The position numbers and the translations under genes are program-made. Below the pieces are notes generated by a model. The model saw nothing but the letters and a program-made list of their open reading frames with translations. It was not told the DNA's origin and searched no databases. This document shows positions 2-25,190 of a stretch of DNA of 32,000 nucleotides, one piece after another (position 1 is the first letter of the stretch; each line of letters starts with the position of its first letter). Source of the stretch: Promethearchaeota archaeon. GTDB taxonomy: Archaea; Asgardarchaeota; Lokiarchaeia; Sigyniarchaeales; SOKP01. The stretch spans positions 36,310 through 68,309 of the forward strand of contig JBHLOC010000018.1 of NCBI GenBank assembly GCA_048940925.1, given 5' to 3'.

Positions 2-130
2 CCTGATATGTATGAATGCACTGCTTGTGGTTATATTGGACTCTTTTATATTGAAGTTGATTCAGAAGATTATCAATTGGATCAAGAAGAAAGCTCTGTT
101 AATTTAAAGGAAAAAGACAATAATGTGTGA
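2..130 (+). CDS. 3' end of a gene starting upstream of the window (42 C-terminal codons, CxxC-containing, function unknown)
   Basis: Frame open from the window edge: PDMYECTACGYIGLFYIEVDSEDYQLDQEESSVNLKEKDNNV. Stop TGA at 128-130 overlaps the GTG at 127 of the next gene (GTGTGA). Confidence 0.35.
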   Translation, partial: PDMYECTACGYIGLFYIEVDSEDYQLDQEESSVNLKEKDNNV

Positions 131-1068
131 TATTGATGGAACAACTACTAAAAGATGCTGAAAGAATTAGATCCCTTGAAATTCAAGGCGCTACTAATGT
201 AGCTATTAGTGCGATTGATTTTTTAAGTAATTATGCGAAAAGATTAAAATGTGAAAACTTAGAGAGCGGTTTTGAGCATCTTTATAATGCAAGAGATATT
301 TTAATTGAAACAAGACCAACTGAGCCAGCTATGAAAAATGGTTTAAAATTTATAATAAATAAATTAGAAGAAGAAAAAGATCATTGTGATGCGGAGTACA
401 TTTCTGATATTATTGAAAAGTATAAAAATCAATATTATGATATGCTCCAAAATTCAAAGAAAAAAATTGCTCAAATTGGTGCTCGGCGAATCCCCGCTGC
501 CAGTAAGAAATATATTGTAATGACTCACTGTCATTCATCTTTAGTTGTTGCTATTTTATTAGAAGCTAAAAAACAGGGAAAAAATTTCAAGGTAATAAAT
601 ACTGAAACCCAACCGAGATTACAAGGTCGCAAGACAGCAGAAAAGCTATTAGATGCTGGAATTGAAGTTACTCACATTGTTGATAGCGCCATGCGATGGG
701 CTGTTAGACATTTTCAAGTAGATCTAATTATAATAGGGGCAGATAGCATAACTTCTGAGGGGACAATAATCAACAAAATAGGATCACGATTGTTGGCATT
801 AGTAGCTCATGAAGAACACGTTCCTTTTTATGTTGCATCTCCCTTATTGAAATATAATCCAGAAACCAATCTGGGTATTTTAGAAACTATCGAAATGAGA
901 GATCCAAACGAAATATGGGAAAATCCTCCTAAAGGGATTAAGATTCTAAATCCTGCATTCGAAACTGTAAGCAGAAGATATATTGATGGGTTAATTACAG
1001 AAGCGGGAATATTTGCTACGAGTCATGTACCAAATTATTTCGTTAAATTATATCCAGAAATGGCATAA
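127..1068 (+). CDS. ribose-1,5-bisphosphate isomerase (eIF-2B alpha/beta/delta-like family)
   Basis: 313-aa ORF with the family-typical block LIIIGADSITSEGTIINKIGS. It lies tail-to-tail with a type III RuBisCO gene, its partner in the archaeal AMP/NMP salvage pathway. Start is GTG 127 or ATG 136. Confidence 0.75.
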   Translation: MILMEQLLKDAERIRSLEIQGATNVAISAIDFLSNYAKRLKCENLESGFEHLYNARDILIETRPTEPAMKNGLKFIINKLEEEKDHCDAEYISDIIEKYKNQYYDMLQNSKKKIAQIGARRIPAASKKYIVMTHCHSSLVVAILLEAKKQGKNFKVINTETQPRLQGRKTAEKLLDAGIEVTHIVDSAMRWAVRHFQVDLIIIGADSITSEGTIINKIGSRLLALVAHEEHVPFYVASPLLKYNPETNLGILETIEMRDPNEIWENPPKGIKILNPAFETVSRRYIDGLITEAGIFATSHVPNYFVKLYPEMA

Positions 1069-1078
1069 TTTTCTTTAT

Positions 1079-2359
1079 TTAAGACGTACCCCATTTTTCA
1101 ATTGCTCTAGCTAATTCAATATTGTTTTTAGCATATTCTTTTAACTCATAACCTTCTAAAACAGCATTAATTGCTTGTCTAATTGCTTTTGCTCCAGCTT
1201 CAGTACCATCCGGATGTCCATGACACCCTCCTCCAAATTGAAATACCATATCCTTGCCTAAAATTTCGACTAATTCAGGAATATGCAATGGACTTAAACC
1301 TCCCGAAGCAACCGGTAGAGTGGGTTTGATTGTTCCCCACTCTTGATTAAGAACTGTTTGATTATTGTCTTCAATTTTGGATTTTGTAATTACTTGATTA
1401 ATTTCTAATACTTCTTTTTTAGCACCTTCCATTTTTCCTACTACCGTTCCTGTATGTAATTGATCCATACCAATTAATCTCATTAGTTTTGCTAAAGCTA
1501 GCATTGTCACTCCATGCTTTTTATTTCTAGTAAAAGCGGCATGCATTGCTCTGTGAGCATGAAGTACTAGGTCTTTATCATCGAGATATTCTCTAATTTC
1601 TTGTAGGGCTGAAAAACCTATGGTTACTATATCTACCATTACATATTCTCCCCCATTATCAAAAACATAATCTGCTCGTTTTTTCATAGTGCTAAGAGGA
1701 GATGTTATATTCGGCATATAGAATTTCCTTTCTCCTATTTCTGTTTCAATTCTATCACGGATTTTCAATGTTTCTGTAATTCTTGTCTCAAATTTATTAA
1801 AAACCATACTTGTTAAGTTTTCATCATCTTTAACAATGTCTAGTCCCCCTCTCCAAGCTTCTCCACACACTTTTGCATGCTCGATTTCATTCAATCCTAC
1901 CTTGGGCTTTACAATTGTTCCTACAAGTGGACGATCTCTAACTTTGGTCAATTTTCTAATACCTTGAATTCCGAATTTTGGTCCCTTATATGACTTTATA
2001 ATATTTTGAGGAAAACTTATATCTAATAATCTCAAATATTTTAGAGCTTTCATTCCAAAAATATTTCCTGCAACAGCACTTAATATTTGAGGTATATTTT
2101 CAATTTCGAAAAGTTCTTGAGTATAAGCAATTTTTACAATATTTTTTTCAGGATTAATATAAAAAACCGCTGGCTTGAGTCTTCTAGCAATATCTGCAGA
2201 TAAGGTAGCAATCTCTGTCCACGTTCCTATTGAGCTTTCTTTCGCAATTTCTTCACACGCTTGTTCAATATTTTTACAATCTGGTGCTTTTTCTACATAA
2301 TACATTGCAATGAGATCATTCTCATTTGGTTTATAGCTTAAATTTATATAGTCTACCAA
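1079..2359 (-). CDS. rbcL: ribulose-1,5-bisphosphate carboxylase/oxygenase large subunit, form III
   Basis: 426-aa ORF collinear with archaeal RbcL. Matching blocks: GNIFGMKALKYLRL, KPKVGL, GGLDIVKDDENLTS, HAHRAMHAAFTR, SGGL, GGGCHGHPDG, ELARAIEKWG. Apparent TTG start. Confidence 0.92.
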   Translation of the reverse strand: MVDYINLSYKPNENDLIAMYYVEKAPDCKNIEQACEEIAKESSIGTWTEIATLSADIARRLKPAVFYINPEKNIVKIAYTQELFEIENIPQILSAVAGNIFGMKALKYLRLLDISFPQNIIKSYKGPKFGIQGIRKLTKVRDRPLVGTIVKPKVGLNEIEHAKVCGEAWRGGLDIVKDDENLTSMVFNKFETRITETLKIRDRIETEIGERKFYMPNITSPLSTMKKRADYVFDNGGEYVMVDIVTIGFSALQEIREYLDDKDLVLHAHRAMHAAFTRNKKHGVTMLALAKLMRLIGMDQLHTGTVVGKMEGAKKEVLEINQVITKSKIEDNNQTVLNQEWGTIKPTLPVASGGLSPLHIPELVEILGKDMVFQFGGGCHGHPDGTEAGAKAIRQAINAVLEGYELKEYAKNNIELARAIEKWGTS

Positions 2360-2492: not shown

Positions 2493-2804
2493 ATGAGTGA
2501 AGAAAAAAGCAAGATTATGACTATAAACGTTAAAGATCTTAGTTTTAAAAGTGAACAGTATGTTCTTGATTTGATAAGATTCTTATCAGAGGCACTACCT
2601 CAAATAAATCTTGATCGTGAAGCGAATGATATTAGTGTTGAAATGCCAATTGAATTATCTAAGAGAGCTTTAAAATTAAGAATTAAGAAATTTTTGTATA
2701 AAAAAGGTTTAAACAAAGATTTTAGACCCATTTCACATAAATCAATAGATTCAGAAGGATATATTGTAAAAGAAAAGAAAATAGCAGAATTAAGTTATTA
2801 TTAA
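2493..2804 (+). CDS. small basic protein, possible eukaryote-type ribosomal protein eL22 homolog
   Basis: 103-aa ORF. The C-terminal half, ISVEMPIELSKRALKLRIKKFLYKKGLNKDFRPIS, resembles the remembered eL22 block [35 protein letters not shown]. The match is by eye only. Confidence 0.4.
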   Translation: MSEEKSKIMTINVKDLSFKSEQYVLDLIRFLSEALPQINLDREANDISVEMPIELSKRALKLRIKKFLYKKGLNKDFRPISHKSIDSEGYIVKEKKIAELSYY

Positions 2805-3903: not shown

Positions 3904-4254
3904 ATGGAATTCTGTGATGAATGTGGCAGTATGATGCTCCCTTCTAAGATAAATGGTAAAAAAGTATTTAAGTGTAAATGTGGTGCAATAAAAGATTTTT
4001 CTGAGGAAAAATCAGGATCTTACAAATTGACTACTAAGATTGAGCACTCTATCAGAAATGAGGTCACAAACTTAGCTGAAGTATTAGATTGGAAAGAAGA
4101 AAACTTACGGAGTACAATTAAGAACTTTAAATGTCCTCGGTGTGGGTATGACAAGGCACATCTAGAAACACGCCAAACAAGAAGTGCGGATGAAGGAATG
4201 ACCCATTTTATTGTGTGTCTAAAATGTGGTCGTCATATAAAAATAAGAAGTTAA
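3904..4254 (+). CDS. tfs: transcription factor S (TFIIS-like cleavage factor / RpoM family)
   Basis: 116 aa. N-terminal zinc ribbon CDECG...CKCG. C-terminal TFIIS-type zinc ribbon CPRCG...QTRSADEGMT...CLKCG with the acidic DE hairpin. Confidence 0.85.
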   Translation: MEFCDECGSMMLPSKINGKKVFKCKCGAIKDFSEEKSGSYKLTTKIEHSIRNEVTNLAEVLDWKEENLRSTIKNFKCPRCGYDKAHLETRQTRSADEGMTHFIVCLKCGRHIKIRS

Positions 4255-8349: not shown

Positions 8350-9939
8350 TTATTTATGGTTGATTTGTTCCCCATATCCTATTAGTCGATAACGCCTATT
8401 AATTATACGAGAAATAGCATATATGAAATCTTCAGGGGGACAAATAGGAGGTGTAAGTTTTATAATAACACTATTTTTTAAAATTTTCGTAACAGTCCCA
8501 CCTGTTTTTTCCGTTCCTACTACAAGTAATAATTTCTCTCCATGTTTGAGAGGTTGAACTTTCATTTGAACTTCAGATCCAATAACTCTATCTAAAAGAT
8601 TTACATTCAGCTCAACTTCGCTAAGAATTTTAGGTAATGTTCCTATTTTTCCAACTAAATGGCCAATTAGATGATCTCCTTTTGTTAACGCGGGATCTAA
8701 TTTTGTACCTAACCCTATGAGACCTCCAGGTTTAGCATTTTCCAAAGGATTATTTCCTTGGCTTATACTTACAACCGTAGATTTTAATGGTACATACTGA
8801 TCTTTAACTCGTATCCCCGGGCTAATTTCGATTTGGTCTCCAACTATTATTTTTCCTTTTAAAACAGAGCCCCCTATTACACCACCTTTTAAATCCTTAA
8901 TTTCTTTACCTGGACGATTGATATCAAAGGATCTCGCAATTAAAAATTGAAATGACTCCTCCTCTTTAAATTTTGGAGTAGGAATAACCTCTTCAAAAGC
9001 TCTTATTACAAGATTTATATTCGCCCCAAAAACTGCCGATAAGGGTATAATTGGAGCATTTTCAGCAACAGTTCCTTTTATAAATTCTTTTATTTGTTGA
9101 AAGTTCTCTAAGGCTTGTTCTCGAGAAACAGCATCAATTTTATTTTGTAATATAATAATATTTTTTATGCCCGCAATATTTAAAGCCGCTAAGTGTTCCC
9201 GTGTTTGAGGTTGAGGGCATTGCTCATCAGCTGCAATTAAAAGGCAAGCCCCATTCATTAATGATGCACCACTTAACATAGTTGCCATTAATATCTCATG
9301 ACCAGGCGCATCAACAAATGAGATATTTCTTCTAAATTCTAGATTTCCTTTACATTTTGGGCAAGAGAATCGAGCTTGTCCTTTTTCTCTATCTTTTTCT
9401 GCAAGATAAGCCGTTGTATATTCATTACATTCGGAACAATAAAGAATTGAGGCATTAGAATACCCTAACTTTATTGAAATTCCTCTTTCTTGCTCTTCTG
9501 AGTGGCGATCAGTCCAATCTCCAGTTAGGGCTTTTACTAGGGTTGTCTATATGTTTCATGAAGGATTCCTTCAAAAAATTCCATGATCAACATGCCCTAC
9601 AAGCCCTATATTACATTCTGCTTGTTGTTTGATTAATTCTTTTATCTTCTTAGCTTTCTCTTTCGAAACTGGCTTTGCTTTAGGTTTAGATATCGTTTCT
9701 TCTTTAATTATTTCTTTCACTTCATCAGATTGTTCTATTTTTTGACTTTTCTTTAGAATTTTTTTAGCATTTGTAATATACTTCTCTGCTGTTGCTTTTC
9801 CAACACCTTTTATTTTTAGCTTTAATAAATCCTTGGGTTCAGCATTTGCAAGTTTTTCAACAGAATCAATATTAGCAGCCTTTAATCTTTCTGCTGTTGC
9901 TTTTCCAATTCCACTTACATCTTCCAATTTATATGACAT
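8350..9939 (-). CDS. eif2g: translation initiation factor aIF2 gamma with N-terminal (HhH)2 extension, interrupted in the P-loop by a 30-nt intervening sequence (exons 9939..9579 and 9548..8350)
   Basis: ORFs 9571..9939 and 8350..9288 are in the same frame, and 9289-9548 is open in that frame. Concatenated sequence: ...NIGLVGHVDHG[K]TTLVKALTGDWTDRHSEEQERGISIKLGY...CSEC...CPKC...FVDAPGHEILMATMLSGA...QNKID...RSFDINRPG. This is collinear with aIF2-gamma, including the zinc knuckle. Exon lengths of 361 + 1199 nt give 1560 nt, which is 520 codons including the stop. Confidence 0.85.
9549..9578 (-). other. candidate bulge-helix-bulge (BHB) intron in the aIF2-gamma mRNA
   Basis: Minus-strand sequence is GGAA|UUUUUUGAAGGAAUCCUUCAUGAAACAUAU|AGACA. 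It contains in-frame TGA, TGA and TAG. Removing it restores GGA AAG ACA (G-K-T). The structure has 3-nt bulges AAU/AUA, a central helix AUGG/ACAU and an internal hairpin UUUUUGAAGG-AAU-CCUUCAUGAA. Confidence 0.6.
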
Positions 9940-18104: not shown

Positions 18105-18494
18105 TTGAGAGATAATATGGCTAAAAAAAAAGGAAAAAAAGGAAAGAAAGGAAGATCATCTGATCAACCAGTAATTACTAGGGTTAAATTCCCGAATAAA
18201 GAACTGGGAGAAATGTTCGCAATTGTGATTGATATTTTAGGAGGAGATAGGATGCGAGTATTCTGTGAGGATGGTAAACACCGAATAGGAAGAATTCGTG
18301 GTAAAATAAAGAAGAGGGTATGGATAAGGCGCGGAGATCTGACGATAGTGAATCCATGGGACTGGGAAACTGAAACTAAAGATGGATTAGGGAAATGCGA
18401 GATCACATGGAGATATACACGCGCTGAAATCTCATGGCTTGAGCGTAAAAATAGAATTCCAGATATATTAGATATAAATAATATCCCTTTTTAA
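18105..18494 (+). CDS. eif1a: translation initiation factor aIF1A (eIF1A, S1/OB fold)
   Basis: 129 aa. Basic N-terminus, then GEMFAIVIDILGGDRMRVFCEDGKHRIGRIRGKIKKRVWIRRGDLTIVNPWDW, typical of aIF1A. The in-frame ATG at 18117 is the more likely start. Confidence 0.85.
   Translation: MRDNMAKKKGKKGKKGRSSDQPVITRVKFPNKELGEMFAIVIDILGGDRMRVFCEDGKHRIGRIRGKIKKRVWIRRGDLTIVNPWDWETETKDGLGKCEITWRYTRAEISWLERKNRIPDILDINNIPF
18437..18494 (+). repeat. direct repeat copy 1 (last 58 nt of aIF1A including its stop)
   Basis: GCTTGAGCGTAAAAATAGAATTCCAGATATATTAGATATAAATAATATCCCTTTTTAA recurs at 18983-19040 with 4 mismatches. Both copies are followed within 5-10 nt by ATAATAGGC. Confidence 0.8.
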
Positions 18495-19212: not shown

Positions 19213-19965
19213 TTGTCTGAAAAAGAAGAAAATTTAAATGAAGGTGAAGAATTTTCGATTGATGAGAGCTCTTTATCGGAATCTGAAGAAGAAAAAGGAG
19301 AATTAACAACTCTTTTTGCTGTAAGAACAACAATTAATCAAGAGAGTAATATTCTCAAACAAATTTTTTATCGTTTCCGTATATTAGACACTATACCTGA
19401 TATCCGCGCTATGCTTGTTTCTCCTCTTCTACCGGGCTATATATTTTTCGAAGCTCCCACTAAGAGAGAGGTTCAAATCGCTGTACAAGGAATACCTCAT
19501 ATCAAAGGAAGAATTGTCCAAAATATCGAATTAAGTGAATTGAAACATGTTTTACTCCCAAGAAGTGTCACTGAATATTTAGAAGAAGGAGACACGGTTG
19601 AAATTATTAGTGGTGTGTTTGAAGGTGCAAGAGCTATCGTCATGCGGATGCCTCATGATACATCAAGCAGTGAGGAAGTTGTTGTTCGATTGCTACAAGA
19701 AGAAACTCCTATAACAATTAAAATTCATGGAGATTTTTTAAAGCTAGTTGAAAAGAAGAAACCTGTCGCTGAGATTGTCCCTGAAATTAAAGTTTCAGGA
19801 GGTACTGTCACAGATATAGAAAAAGCAATATCTTTTGAAGATGAATTTGAAGAGTTTGAAGAGGAATATCCAGAAAGTTTGAGAAGTGAAGAAACTGAAG
19901 AATACTCTGATGAAGAAGAGGAACTCGAAGAAGAAGATGAATGGGCTAAATTTGATGGTTTCTAA
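19213..19965 (+). CDS. spt5: transcription elongation factor Spt5 (NusG family; NGN + KOW) with acidic N- and C-terminal extensions
   Basis: 250 aa. NGN-like LFAVRTTINQE...PGYIFFEA...IPHIKG. KOW GDTVEIISGVFEGARAIVMRM. Acidic N-terminus (about 30 aa, S/E-rich) and acidic C-terminus (about 50 aa). TTG start. Confidence 0.8.
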   Translation: MSEKEENLNEGEEFSIDESSLSESEEEKGELTTLFAVRTTINQESNILKQIFYRFRILDTIPDIRAMLVSPLLPGYIFFEAPTKREVQIAVQGIPHIKGRIVQNIELSELKHVLLPRSVTEYLEEGDTVEIISGVFEGARAIVMRMPHDTSSSEEVVVRLLQEETPITIKIHGDFLKLVEKKKPVAEIVPEIKVSGGTVTDIEKAISFEDEFEEFEEEYPESLRSEETEEYSDEEEELEEEDEWAKFDGF

Positions 19966-20183: not shown

Positions 20184-20933
20184 ATGATTAAAAATATCTT
20201 CATCATGAAATCCACAGGGGAGTTAATTTTTTATAAAACCTATGAAGATATTTTTAATGTAAAACTTACAAGTAGTTTTTTAAGTGCGATCTTCTCATTT
20301 GTAAAACAAACATTAAAAACTGAAGAATTATCTGAAATTGAAGTAGGGCTCTTTAGGTTTATATTTGAAATTGAGAAAATGGGGAATGATGAATTACTAT
20401 TTGCATTATTTAGTGATCGAACTGAAAATTTAATCGAGTTAAGAAAACAATTACGAGAAGTAAAAAATCAATTTTTAAATAGATTTGATGTTAACTTATT
20501 AACTGATCATTATGATGGCGAGATTTCAAAATTTCTCGATTTTGAAAATAATATTAATGACATCATGGAAAGTAGTAAGCCATTGATCTCAAAAGAAATC
20601 CATGGAGATTTAATAAATATTTTTAATGAGCTGCATACATTCTCTTCTTTCGTCGTATCTTCAGCATTATTAACTCAGACAGGAAGAGTAATAGTTTCCT
20701 ATTTAGAACATAATGTTCTTACAGAAATCATACGACTTCTAGAGGGTAGATTTCTGGCAGGAAATTATAAAGTTAATGAGCTAATATCATTAGAAAAATT
20801 TGGCGTGCTTTCATTGGTAGGAATCAATGATAGTTATATATCAGTAATTCAATTTAAAAAAAATTGCCCTTTTGAGACAGGGTTAGTCATTTCAAAAAGA
20901 TTCTCAAATAGACTGCAAAAACTTATTTGTTAA
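20184..20933 (+). CDS. hypothetical protein, possible longin-like N-domain plus Roadblock/LC7-like C-domain
   Basis: 249 aa. The N-terminus IFIMKSTGELIFYKTY....LTSSFLSAIFSFVKQ resembles longin/SNARE-like folds. The C-terminus VVSSALLTQTGRVIVSYLE...VLSLVGINDSYISVIQF resembles Roadblock. Pattern level only. Confidence 0.35.
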   Translation: MIKNIFIMKSTGELIFYKTYEDIFNVKLTSSFLSAIFSFVKQTLKTEELSEIEVGLFRFIFEIEKMGNDELLFALFSDRTENLIELRKQLREVKNQFLNRFDVNLLTDHYDGEISKFLDFENNINDIMESSKPLISKEIHGDLINIFNELHTFSSFVVSSALLTQTGRVIVSYLEHNVLTEIIRLLEGRFLAGNYKVNELISLEKFGVLSLVGINDSYISVIQFKKNCPFETGLVISKRFSNRLQKLIC

Positions 20934-24359: not shown

Positions 24360-25190
24360 TTATCTAAAAAAAGTCAAATACACATATGTAACTATCAATA
24401 TCGCTATGATGATCAAGAAAAGAATAATAAAACATTTCCTTGATTTCTTACTTTTTATAAATTCTTTCCCTTCTAAGATAAGAGTTTCTTGATCACCATT
24501 ATCCAGTGTTGTATCTTTAATTAAAAACTGCCCAGTATCAGTTTGAATTATCTCTAATTCTTCCCTTTTTTGCAATTTTTTAGTTAATTTTCTGAATTCC
24601 TTTACTGATTTCTTAATTAAATCTTGAGTTTCTTTGGGTAAATCATCATCCCGAATTTCAAGATCTTGTGTCATAAAATCTAAACCAACAGTTAACTTGT
24701 AATCTGCTTCAAACTCTTTATTAACAAAAGATTTGATTAATGAAGACTTCCCTACAGCAGCTTCCCCAACAAGCAATATTTTAAACCTAAAATGATCAGA
24801 ATTGATAATTTCACCTAACCTTGCTTTAAAATCTAGCAATGAGATTAATGCTAACCTATAAAATAACTTATCTACGTTATTTTTTTCTAAGGCTGATGTT
24901 TCTATAAACTCAAATAGATTGTATTGATTTAATTTTTGAAGTATTTTATCTTTTGGAACTGCTTCTCCGATATCTTTCTTTAAATCATTTTTATTTCCAA
25001 CTAAGATAATTGGGATGTTTCCTGAATGTTCACGTAAATCTTTAAAATATTCGTCAATATTTTCGAGGGTATCAGGTCTAGAAAGATCAAATACTAATGC
25101 AACTGTAGCAACTCCGTTAAAAAAATCAGTTTTAAAGAAGCTAAACCGCTCTTGACCTGCGATATCCCAAAGACTTAGAGTTACTCTCAT
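24360..25190 (-). CDS. circularly permuted Rab-like small GTPase with C-terminal transmembrane anchor
   Basis: 276 aa. G3 WDIAGQERF (aa 8-16), G4 GNKND (65-69), G5 ETSA (97-100), then G1 GEAAVGKS (142-149) and G2 YKLTVGLDF (164-172). TM CFIILFLIIIAILIVTYVYLTFF (253-275). An in-frame TAG lies 5 codons upstream of the ATG, and the upstream region is AT-rich non-coding. Confidence 0.75.
   Translation of the reverse strand: MRVTLSLWDIAGQERFSFFKTDFFNGVATVALVFDLSRPDTLENIDEYFKDLREHSGNIPIILVGNKNDLKKDIGEAVPKDKILQKLNQYNLFEFIETSALEKNNVDKLFYRLALISLLDFKARLGEIINSDHFRFKILLVGEAAVGKSSLIKSFVNKEFEADYKLTVGLDFMTQDLEIRDDDLPKETQDLIKKSVKEFRKLTKKLQKREELEIIQTDTGQFLIKDTTLDNGDQETLILEGKEFIKSKKSRKCFIILFLIIIAILIVTYVYLTFFR

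Follow-up and report, generated by a model that had tools for sequence, protein, structure and literature searches.

A probable bulge-helix-bulge pre-mRNA intron in the P-loop codons of the Asgard aIF2-gamma gene

How can an archaeon make aIF2-gamma, an essential and universally conserved translation initiation factor, from a gene whose GTP-binding P-loop is interrupted by stop codons? The question is raised by 32,000 nucleotides (nt) of DNA from a Promethearchaeota archaeon (assembly GCA_048940925.1, contig JBHLOC010000018.1, positions 36,310 to 68,309; this whole stretch is called the window), a piece of an archaeal contig with 29.5% GC. The organism is one of the Asgard archaea, to which eukaryotes are more closely related than to any other known prokaryotes. 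On the minus strand of the window an open reading frame (ORF) of 122 amino acids (aa), 9939..9571, terminates in NIGLVGHVDHGIF and a stop codon; after three in-frame stops the same frame reopens at 9548 and runs to a stop at 8350. We conclude that the interruption is very probably a genuine and conserved bulge-helix-bulge (BHB) pre-mRNA intron, which would be excised at the RNA level by the tRNA-splicing endonuclease EndA and the ligase RtcB.

The break reads CAT GGA A/TTTTTTGAAGGAATCCTTCATGAAACATAT/AG ACA ACC on the minus strand, and the insert, 9578..9549, holds the in-frame stops TGA, TGA and TAG. Its removal turns GGA A/30 nt/AG ACA into GGA AAG ACA (G-K-T), giving GHVDHGKTTLVK and an intact 519-aa aIF2-gamma preceded by a helix-hairpin-helix (HhH) domain; the predicted spliced junction is ...CATGGAA/AGACAACC.... 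The original prediction, made from the letters of the window, held that the ORFs 9571..9939 and 8350..9288 (minus strand) together with the open stretch 9289-9548 are one frame of a well-conserved aIF2-gamma, that deleting exactly 9578..9549 recreates G-K-T, and that no other excision does so. We verified the coordinates and the single frame, obtained the full 519-aa ORF from that deletion, and on reading the sequence directly found no alternative excision restoring G-K-T or the Lys codon. The family assignment held as well, since the spliced product exceeds the equivalog cut-offs of both NCBIfam TIGR03680 (eif2g_arch; 550.8 bits vs 514.5) and PRK04000 (559 vs 315), and Pfam recognizes in it GTP_EFTU, domain 2 and eIF2_C, a complete aIF2-gamma. 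Gene callers give exon 1 as the 122-aa fragment. The first in-frame start codon of exon 2 lies not before 9288, and no start codon could bring translation of the stretch 9289-9548 without splicing.

The N-terminus of the spliced product carries the HhH domain (PF14520, residues 5-53), followed by a Lys/Glu-rich linker. The HhH module (window 9625-9939, minus strand) is similar to the RadA N-terminus, and the linker has about 50 residues. The 120 best database homologs (P0001-P0120), of which the named ones come from Promethearchaeota/Lokiarchaeia-type Asgard metagenome-assembled genomes (MAGs), are intact proteins of 505-534 aa with 73-86% identity; all 120 have the HhH module and none has the insert. 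Because the HhH fusion is present in the intact homologs, it counts as usual in this clade, unlike the insert. The 17 orthologs from GTDB species-representative genomes likewise all read through as uninterrupted GGN AAR ACN. The insert, missing from these orthologs and homologs, is present in related metagenome contigs.

An assembly error, raised in the original prediction as something to be checked, was excluded, and we consider the chance of any assembly or sequencing artefact negligible. Per-run Logan assemblies contain both gene fragments exactly; from 6 samples, such assemblies show the same insert, as do 33 further JGI/NCBI contigs and exon-1 fragment clusters from NCBI, JGI, ENA and Logan. 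Two of the independent assemblies, L037/L039 (ERR15824517; contig in 4 samples; 99.9% identity to the window) and L038 (SRR30758841; 2 samples; 98.9% identity), carry a 30-nt insert identical to that of the window. Between L038 and the window there are 11 single-nucleotide differences per 962 nt, none of them inside the insert; ten are in the spliced coding sequence, nine of these synonymous and one a conservative N->D. Six of the changes fall in 9289-9548 (five synonymous, and the N->D).

Further copies were sought in a single scan of JGI metagenome contigs, using a degenerate pattern that was validated on the window. It allowed any insertion of 15-45 nt in Asgard-type aIF2-gamma after the Gly codon and before the Thr-Thr codons, and kept the synonymous sites of His, Gly, Lys and Leu free; variants such as LTGEWTD fell outside it. 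We found 33 contigs, and every insert is 29 or 30 nt long and lies at exactly this codon. Together with the window there are 34 copies and 24 distinct intron sequences, which form three classes. Class A, with consensus UUUAUUGAAGGAUUCCUUCAUAAAACAUAA, is 30 nt long and has 7 copies, those of the window and its relatives L042, L050, L056, L058, L060 and L067. Class B (consensus UGAAUUAGUCAUUUCGACAAUUCCUAUAA; 20 copies) and class C (consensus UGAUAAUGUCAUUUCGACAUUUCCCAUAA; 7 copies) are both 29 nt long. By sequence, class B is clearly a relative of class C, and class A is not obviously akin to either. If exon 1 is taken to finish with GGNA and exon 2 to open with AR-ACN, this one rule regenerates GHVDHGKTT in 34/34 copies; the 16 genes that are complete on their contig all then give full-length ORFs, of 514-578 aa.

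Most copies, having 29-nt inserts, place the two exons in different DNA frames; this rules out an insertion translated in frame and makes removal of the insert necessary. Unspliced mRNA would give only an HhH-domain fragment of ~120 aa, which would end 2-13 codons past the splice site (2-3 in classes A and B): with IF or IY before the stop in class A, with MN or MI in class B, and after 2-13 codons in class C. Read-through or an alternative genetic code was rejected, both TGA and TAG being in frame and the 29-nt inserts being out of frame. So was an intein or a group I or group II intron, the inserts having 29-30 nt with stops or a frameshift, against more than 130 aa in frame or more than 200 nt of catalytic RNA.

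Ribosomes might instead skip the insert on an unspliced mRNA, either by programmed bypassing of the T4 gene 60 type or by frameshifting. The codon before the insert is indeed the gene-60 take-off codon, GGA, in 27/34 copies, and a hairpin follows it; class A and B copies have a stop codon 2-3 codons downstream, and in class B ribosomes shifting by -1 would cross the 29 nt and enter the frame of exon 2. However, no class offers a GGN landing codon before AAR-ACN, so that take-off and landing codons are not matched and the invariant Lys, whose codon exists only after excision, would not be regenerated. A -1 frameshift would leave 10 residues between the G and K of GxxxxGK[ST] and would serve class B only, class A having in-frame stops, and both processes leave the pairing of the intron 3' end with AUGG and the exon-exon helices unexplained. 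We rejected a bypass of the gene 60 type and regard decoding of this kind in general as very improbable. RNA-level excision at two bulges, followed by ligation, is the only mechanism that fits all three classes.

Is the gene under selection? If it were a pseudogene or inactivated copy, with a second intact aIF2-gamma elsewhere, its BHB-like fold would be incidental; only 32 kb of this genome is visible, and the LCGC14 metagenome contains an intact homolog (P0115) as well as the intron-bearing fragment KKN00364.1, the two probably coming from different organisms. Set against this is the low ratio of non-synonymous to synonymous divergence (dN/dS) between intron-bearing genes, 0.05-0.15 in most comparisons (one close pair reaches 0.26), and dS values of more than 1 occur (window vs L067: dN 0.11, dS 1.44). 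Each of the 16 complete genes has both exons intact, even where the exons are in different frames in the DNA, and the within-species changes are 9 synonymous to 1 non-synonymous. The positions of the intron and of the exon pairing are constrained too: intron p-distances are 0.17, 0.11 and 0.25 in classes A, B and C, vs 0.29, 0.33 and 0.45 at third positions of nearby codons for identical amino acids. Judged by these alignments, purifying selection is shown on both exons and on the intron, and a pseudogene is, given these data, very unlikely.

A BHB consists of two 3-nt bulges on opposite strands with a 4-bp helix between them (PMC6379350), and cbf5 pre-mRNA is cleaved between bulge nucleotides 2 and 3 (PMC2738675). 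The original prediction had folded the insert and its flanks into such a motif, and we found all of its helices and bulges at the positions it gave (Table 1), namely an exon-exon helix (H1), the central helix (H2), the two bulges and an intron hairpin (H3). The splice sites demanded by the protein coincide with cuts between bulge nucleotides 2 and 3 on both strands, as it had also stated. Three of the six H1 pairs are set by bases that the amino acids of Val-Asp-His and Lys-Thr-Thr determine. The codons for Val-Asp-His (GUN GAY CAY) and Lys-Thr-Thr (AAG ACN ACN) are intrinsically complementary (G-C, U-A, G-C), with C-G and U-A added when Lys is AAG and Asp is GAU. These amino-acid-fixed pairs may be the reason why the site can host a BHB, and by its codons any translational GTPase with a GHVDHGKTT P-loop would offer a ready exon helix for such an intron.

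Folding of the window alone is less telling. The unconstrained minimum free energy (MFE) fold finds the AUG/CAU core of H2, the AUA bulge and the hairpin, with a modest z of -1.97, and has H1 in a shifted register (UGUU/GACA); the BHB-constrained fold lies 1.5 kcal/mol above it. When the insert was shuffled, 104 of 200,000 sequences reached at least 3 pairs in H2 together with at least 9 in H3 in the needed register. Rfam gave no matches in the window. The decisive evidence that the BHB exceeds chance lies in the comparative data.

The 3-4-3 geometry with four standard H2 pairs is found in 27 of the 34 copies (classes B and C), the 3' strand of H2 being CUAU in class B and CCAU in class C. In class A (7/34), with ACAU, the geometry is kept and the fourth pair is G.A, a relaxed BHB. 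Bulge 1 is AAU in 27 copies, UAU in 6 and UAC in 1; bulge 2 is AAA in 30, AUA in 2, and ACA and UAA in 1 each. Pairing of the BHB core, counted over 30 distinct sequences aligned by MAFFT, is 83%, vs 32-42% with the 3' partners slid, and the core's covariation score is equalled by 0/500 shuffles. In a gap-free alignment of 24 distinct 29-nt sequences, pairing is 100% in H2, where one pair alternates between G-U and G-C, 98% in the hairpin H3, which shows exchanges among UA, CG, UG and AU, and 90% in the long exon-exon helix, GACUAGUGGG / CC-A-CACUAGUC. Across the pair-count tests slid registers reach 27-47% pairing vs 83-92%. In class A, the hairpin of L067 shows the compensatory combination GAAGA/UCUUC.

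Flanking helices on both bulge sides (hBHBh') are present. The exon-exon side consists of a 2-bp H1a, 65-73% paired, plus either a 6-bp Val/Thr helix or a 10-bp outer helix (90%); this closing helix is weaker than H3 and its register is variable. The class C consensus forms the complete helix-bulge-helix-bulge-helix without constraint, from thermodynamics and covariation together. In five individual sequences the BHB is the MFE structure, and in six of the seven class A sequences it costs 0.8-1.6 kcal/mol over the MFE.

The exons themselves carry an imprint of the intron at synonymous sites, those that pair being under constraint in intron-bearing alleles only. The U-A pair of H2 needs the His codon CAU, which is found in 34/34 intron-bearing and 9/17 intron-less genes. 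The third base of the Gly codon, which is bulge nucleotide 1, is only A or U in intron-bearing genes (GGA/GGU) and is A or U in 13/17 intron-less ones. For Lys, AAG, whose G pairs with C 9585 in H1, is used in 26/34 vs 2/17 genes (Fisher p = 5e-5, distinct sequences), and for Leu, CUA, which contributes CUAG to the outer helix, in 25/34 vs 2/17; these statistics are inflated by shared ancestry, though all go in the same direction. The predicted exon 1/exon 2 duplex has -15.4 kcal/mol in intron-bearing genes vs -10.4 in intron-less ones. One intron-less allele, L073, the nearest of them to class B, is 93% identical to the class B gene L063. Between positions -22 and +5 of the junction the two differ by six synonymous changes (CUA->CUU, GUG->GUA, GGC->GGU, CAU->CAC, GGA->GGU, ACC->ACU), five of them at pairing bases of H2 or the exon-exon helix and one at bulge nucleotide 1, against about 1 difference per 20-25 sites in the downstream exon. 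L073 also has, at ~2140 (Ga0366832_1213859), a 1-nt deletion 641 nt past the junction by which the called protein is cut at 343 aa; this could be an assembly error of a short contig or a genuine frameshift.

The steps of removal would then be as follows. The exon bases AUGG, from the His-Gly codons, would pair with the last intron bases (ACAU; CUAU or CCAU elsewhere) as the 4-bp central helix, with two A-rich 3-nt bulges flanking it on opposite strands. The intron hairpin would close the motif on one side and the pairing of Val-Asp-His with Lys-Thr-Thr(-Leu-Val) on the other. EndA would cut each strand between bulge nucleotides 2 and 3, an RtcB-type ligase would join GGA A to AG ACA, recreating the invariant P-loop lysine codon, and the 30-nt (elsewhere 29-nt) intron would be freed, probably as a circle. 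We infer the acting enzymes, the occurrence of splicing and the circularisation of the intron. That initiation capacity would depend on the tRNA-splicing machinery, as was originally proposed, is a reasonable deduction. Asgard archaea have an (alpha-beta)2 EndA with the L1 loop and broad specificity, as do the Crenarchaeota that splice cbf5 (PMC5829648), and the relaxed class A motif is therefore plausible as a substrate.

Removal at the RNA level by another nuclease/ligase pair, or a BHB-like structure that serves a different processing pathway, we judge to be quite unlikely. EndA and RtcB are named here by inference only, the motif of the window's class is relaxed (G.A in H2), and the class B BHB is not the thermodynamically preferred fold. 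On the other side, 27/34 copies have the exact geometry of an EndA substrate, the cuts coincide with the sole ORF-restoring junction, and no other system that would splice 30-nt introns from archaeal mRNAs is known (PMC10485636).

Several observations weigh against a BHB intron spliced by EndA and RtcB. The window's own class is the most relaxed one, with a G.A fourth pair in H2 and, in H1, a bulged A and more than one possible register, and the window site scores only 8/12 in a generic BHB filter. In classes A and B the unconstrained consensus favours a competing CAUG...CAUG hairpin in the HVDH codons, and the BHB lies ~6-7 kcal/mol above the MFE in class B and 9.4 above it in L056. RNAalifold on the mixed-class MAFFT alignment gave no structure, because the hairpins of the classes are not column-homologous; counts for named structures and per-class folds were used instead. 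The sequences are phylogenetically related, so that the shuffle and Fisher statistics overstate independence. A Pfam scan of the 28 window ORFs (32 kb) found neither EndA nor RtcB. An exact lookup of 10 spliced full-length proteins in a collection of 15 billion proteins found 0, and ARAGORN found no tRNA gene in the window and 39 Asgard loci (~0.35 Mb). Either there are by chance no tRNA genes there, or the intron-rich Asgard tRNA genes escape ARAGORN (PMC5829648, PMC11291895).

Reviews up to 2023 give two archaeal mRNAs cut by the tRNA endonuclease, cbf5 in Crenarchaeota and the 5' untranslated region (UTR) of Haloferax HVO_1309, and consider that more probably exist (PMC7714728, PMC10485636). 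The rarity of archaeal mRNA BHB introns that the original prediction stated thus agrees with the literature, which gives only these two (see also PMC6379350). We found no report of a BHB intron in aIF2-gamma or in Asgard mRNAs, in a literature coverage that is incomplete, and a prior description is possible.

The cbf5 intron (Desulfurococcales/Sulfolobales; Yokobori 2009, PMC2738675) is likewise a short coding-region BHB intron in an essential RNA/translation-related gene, with a relaxed or unconventional motif, cuts between bulge nucleotides 2 and 3 at the ORF-restoring junction, and an (alpha-beta)2 EndA with the L1 loop. It shares the patchy distribution with lineage-specific loss, and its BHB-forming ends are conserved around a variable interior. 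It differs in gene, phylum (TACK vs Asgard) and sequence, and the aIF2-gamma intron is very uniform in length (29-30 nt) and has three sequence classes at one site. Splicing of cbf5 is backed by cDNA and in vitro cleavage, whereas that of aIF2-gamma is predicted from sequence. Membership of the cbf5-intron family was rejected, the host gene being aIF2-gamma; the intron would only work like that of cbf5. Watanabe 2002 and Yoshinari 2006 reportedly studied the crenarchaeal cbf5 pre-mRNA intron.

The HVO_1309 transcript of Haloferax volcanii is also an mRNA substrate of the archaeal splicing endonuclease, and removal is needed for its efficient expression (PMC7714728, PMC10485636); it differs in that the site is in a 5' UTR, the EndA is an alpha2 homodimer needing a strict BHB, and a single organism is concerned. 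With the BHB introns of archaeal tRNA and rRNA, including the abundant non-canonical Asgard tRNA introns (PMC11291895, PMC5829648, PMC6379350), the aIF2-gamma intron shares the 3-4-3 motif, the presumed enzymes and the length of a small tRNA intron. Here the host is an mRNA, and codons make up both the closing helix and the 5' strand of the central one; exon pairing is therefore kept through synonymous sites. The eukaryotic XBP1/HAC1 introns (IRE1 + RtcB/Trl1) resemble it as very short non-spliceosomal mRNA introns (26 nt in XBP1): a protein endonuclease cuts them out at structured sites, a ligase of the RtcB type seals the mRNA, and removal of the intron shifts the frame, as in the 29-nt classes; they differ in using IRE1 and twin stem-loops and in being a regulated stress switch. 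P-loop inteins of GTPases and ATPases also interrupt the most conserved motif of an essential gene, but are removed at the protein level, have hundreds of codons and are in frame without stops. In the DPANN archaeon Ca. Iainarchaeum (L031, JAZDMJ010000054.1, 2102-4001) the P-loop reads GHVDHGK/CIAAEE... and the gene resumes ~1.9 kb further on, probably marking an intein one codon downstream of the Asgard intron site; two kinds of intervening element would thus target the same loop.

In a neighbour-joining tree of the G domain, which has low resolution, intron-bearing and intron-less genes are intermingled; class B forms clades, and classes A and C are dispersed. Presence and absence alternate at shallow depth, the window being at dS 0.42 from the intron-less L001 and at dS 0.45 from the intron-bearing L050. 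For cbf5, precise loss on repeated occasions has been proposed (PMC2738675), and the patchiness here would fit it; recurrent gain could be another source. A fuzzy search for the three intron classes in 583 kb gave 47 matches, all at the aIF2-gamma site, with no sign of mobility. A generic scan of 0.58 Mb of Asgard DNA for BHB introns fusing two long ORFs gave 430 candidates vs 432-478 in mis-registered controls and missed the window's own relaxed site; in DNA as AT-rich as this it has no power, and it speaks neither for nor against other introns.

Might the intron have a role? We think it rather unlikely, as things stand, that it is a homeostatic control point, or, as a related idea, that GHVDHGKTT P-loops are a preferred landing site of BHB introns. 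The BHB includes exon-1 codons ~350 nt past the start codon, and translating ribosomes would melt it, so that splicing would compete with translation of the unspliced mRNA. With little aIF2 and low initiation the motif would fold and be spliced, giving more aIF2-gamma; high initiation would give the free ~120-aa HhH protein. Since invariant codons form most of the exon helix, the P-loop may be repeatedly colonised, which would explain the three dissimilar classes, and similar introns would then be expected in other Asgard translational GTPases.

Features of the gene and other genes of the window are collected in Table 1. The window is rich in translation and transcription genes and in Asgard 'eukaryotic signature' genes, and four Ras-like GTPases are encoded. 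The Pfam scan of the 28 window ORFs gave no second split gene. One ORF of 276 aa, 24360..25190 (minus strand), has Ras motifs in permuted order, G3 WDIAGQE, G4 NKND and G5 SAL followed by G1 GEAAVGKSS and the G2 region, after which the chain continues with a charged linker and finishes in a transmembrane helix at the C-terminus; 'MTIKIILL', a remnant of strand beta-1, is encoded immediately upstream of a stop. This ORF could be a small GTPase that has been circularly permuted or rearranged. As a candidate for a second interrupted GTPase it was rejected, its Ras-like domain being rearranged or permuted with no room for a missing exon.

Table 1. Positions in the window of the split aIF2-gamma gene, of the strands of its predicted BHB motif, and of other genes
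Feature	Position	Strand	Remarks
aIF2-gamma exon 1	9579..9939	-	ATG at 9939; HhH, K/E-rich linker, start of G domain; ends ...GHVDHG + A (GGA A)
Predicted 30-nt BHB intron, class A, UUUUUUGAAGGAAUCCUUCAUGAAACAUAU	9549..9578	-	three in-frame stops
aIF2-gamma exon 2	8350..9548	-	starts AG ACA ACC (Lys codon completed, then TTLVK...); stop codon 8352..8350
H1 exon-exon helix, 5' strand GUUG(A)UC	9585..9591	-	Val-Asp-His codons
H1 exon-exon helix, 3' strand GACAAC	9542..9547	-	Lys-Thr-Thr codons
H2 central 4-bp helix, 5' strand AUGG	9581..9584	-	exon, CAU-GGA codons
H2 central helix, 3' strand ACAU	9551..9554	-	intron; pairs A-U, U-A, G-C, G.A
5' bulge AAU	9578..9580	-	predicted cut between 9579 and 9578
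3' bulge AUA	9548..9550	-	predicted cut between 9549 and 9548
H3 intron hairpin UUUUUGAAGG-AAU-CCUUCAUGAA	9555..9577	-	strong GAAGG/CCUUC apex, weak outer U-rich pairs
Outer exon-1 strands, UAGGGCUU (9608-9601) and UAGGG (9599-9595)	9595..9608	-	pair with exon 2 and close the whole motif
Outer exon-2 strands, CCCUA (9542-9538) and AAGCCCUA (9533-9526)	9526..9542	-	partners of 9595..9608
aIF2B-family protein	127-1068		
RuBisCO large-subunit homolog	1079-2359		
eL22	2493-2804		weak match
TFS	3904-4254		
aIF1A	18105-18494		
Spt5-NGN	19213-19965		
Longin-like protein	20184-20933		

Exon-1 fragments stand in public records under other names: KKN00364.1 (P0127), from the metagenome of Loki's Castle, is 'hypothetical protein LCGC14_1138550', and the names 'ribosomal protein S13' and 'predicted RecB family nuclease' are also in use (the deposited products include P0128, MBA7514627.1, and P0155), the S13 and RecB names being due to the N-terminal HhH domain. 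This suggests that the split gene went unrecognised in those annotations. Marker-gene sets that include aIF2-gamma would score the gene as truncated or missing in intron-bearing MAGs.

The intron would be the second archaeal coding-region BHB case and the first in Asgard archaea, and it would lie in a catalytic P-loop. Its 24 variants in three classes, together with close intron-less sisters, make a natural comparative series, in which one can study how coding sequence and RNA signal co-evolve through synonymous sites and how introns are gained and lost. If Lokiarchaeia that can be cultured or sampled for transcriptomes carry the intron, mRNA splicing by the tRNA machinery would be directly testable in the sister lineage of eukaryotes.

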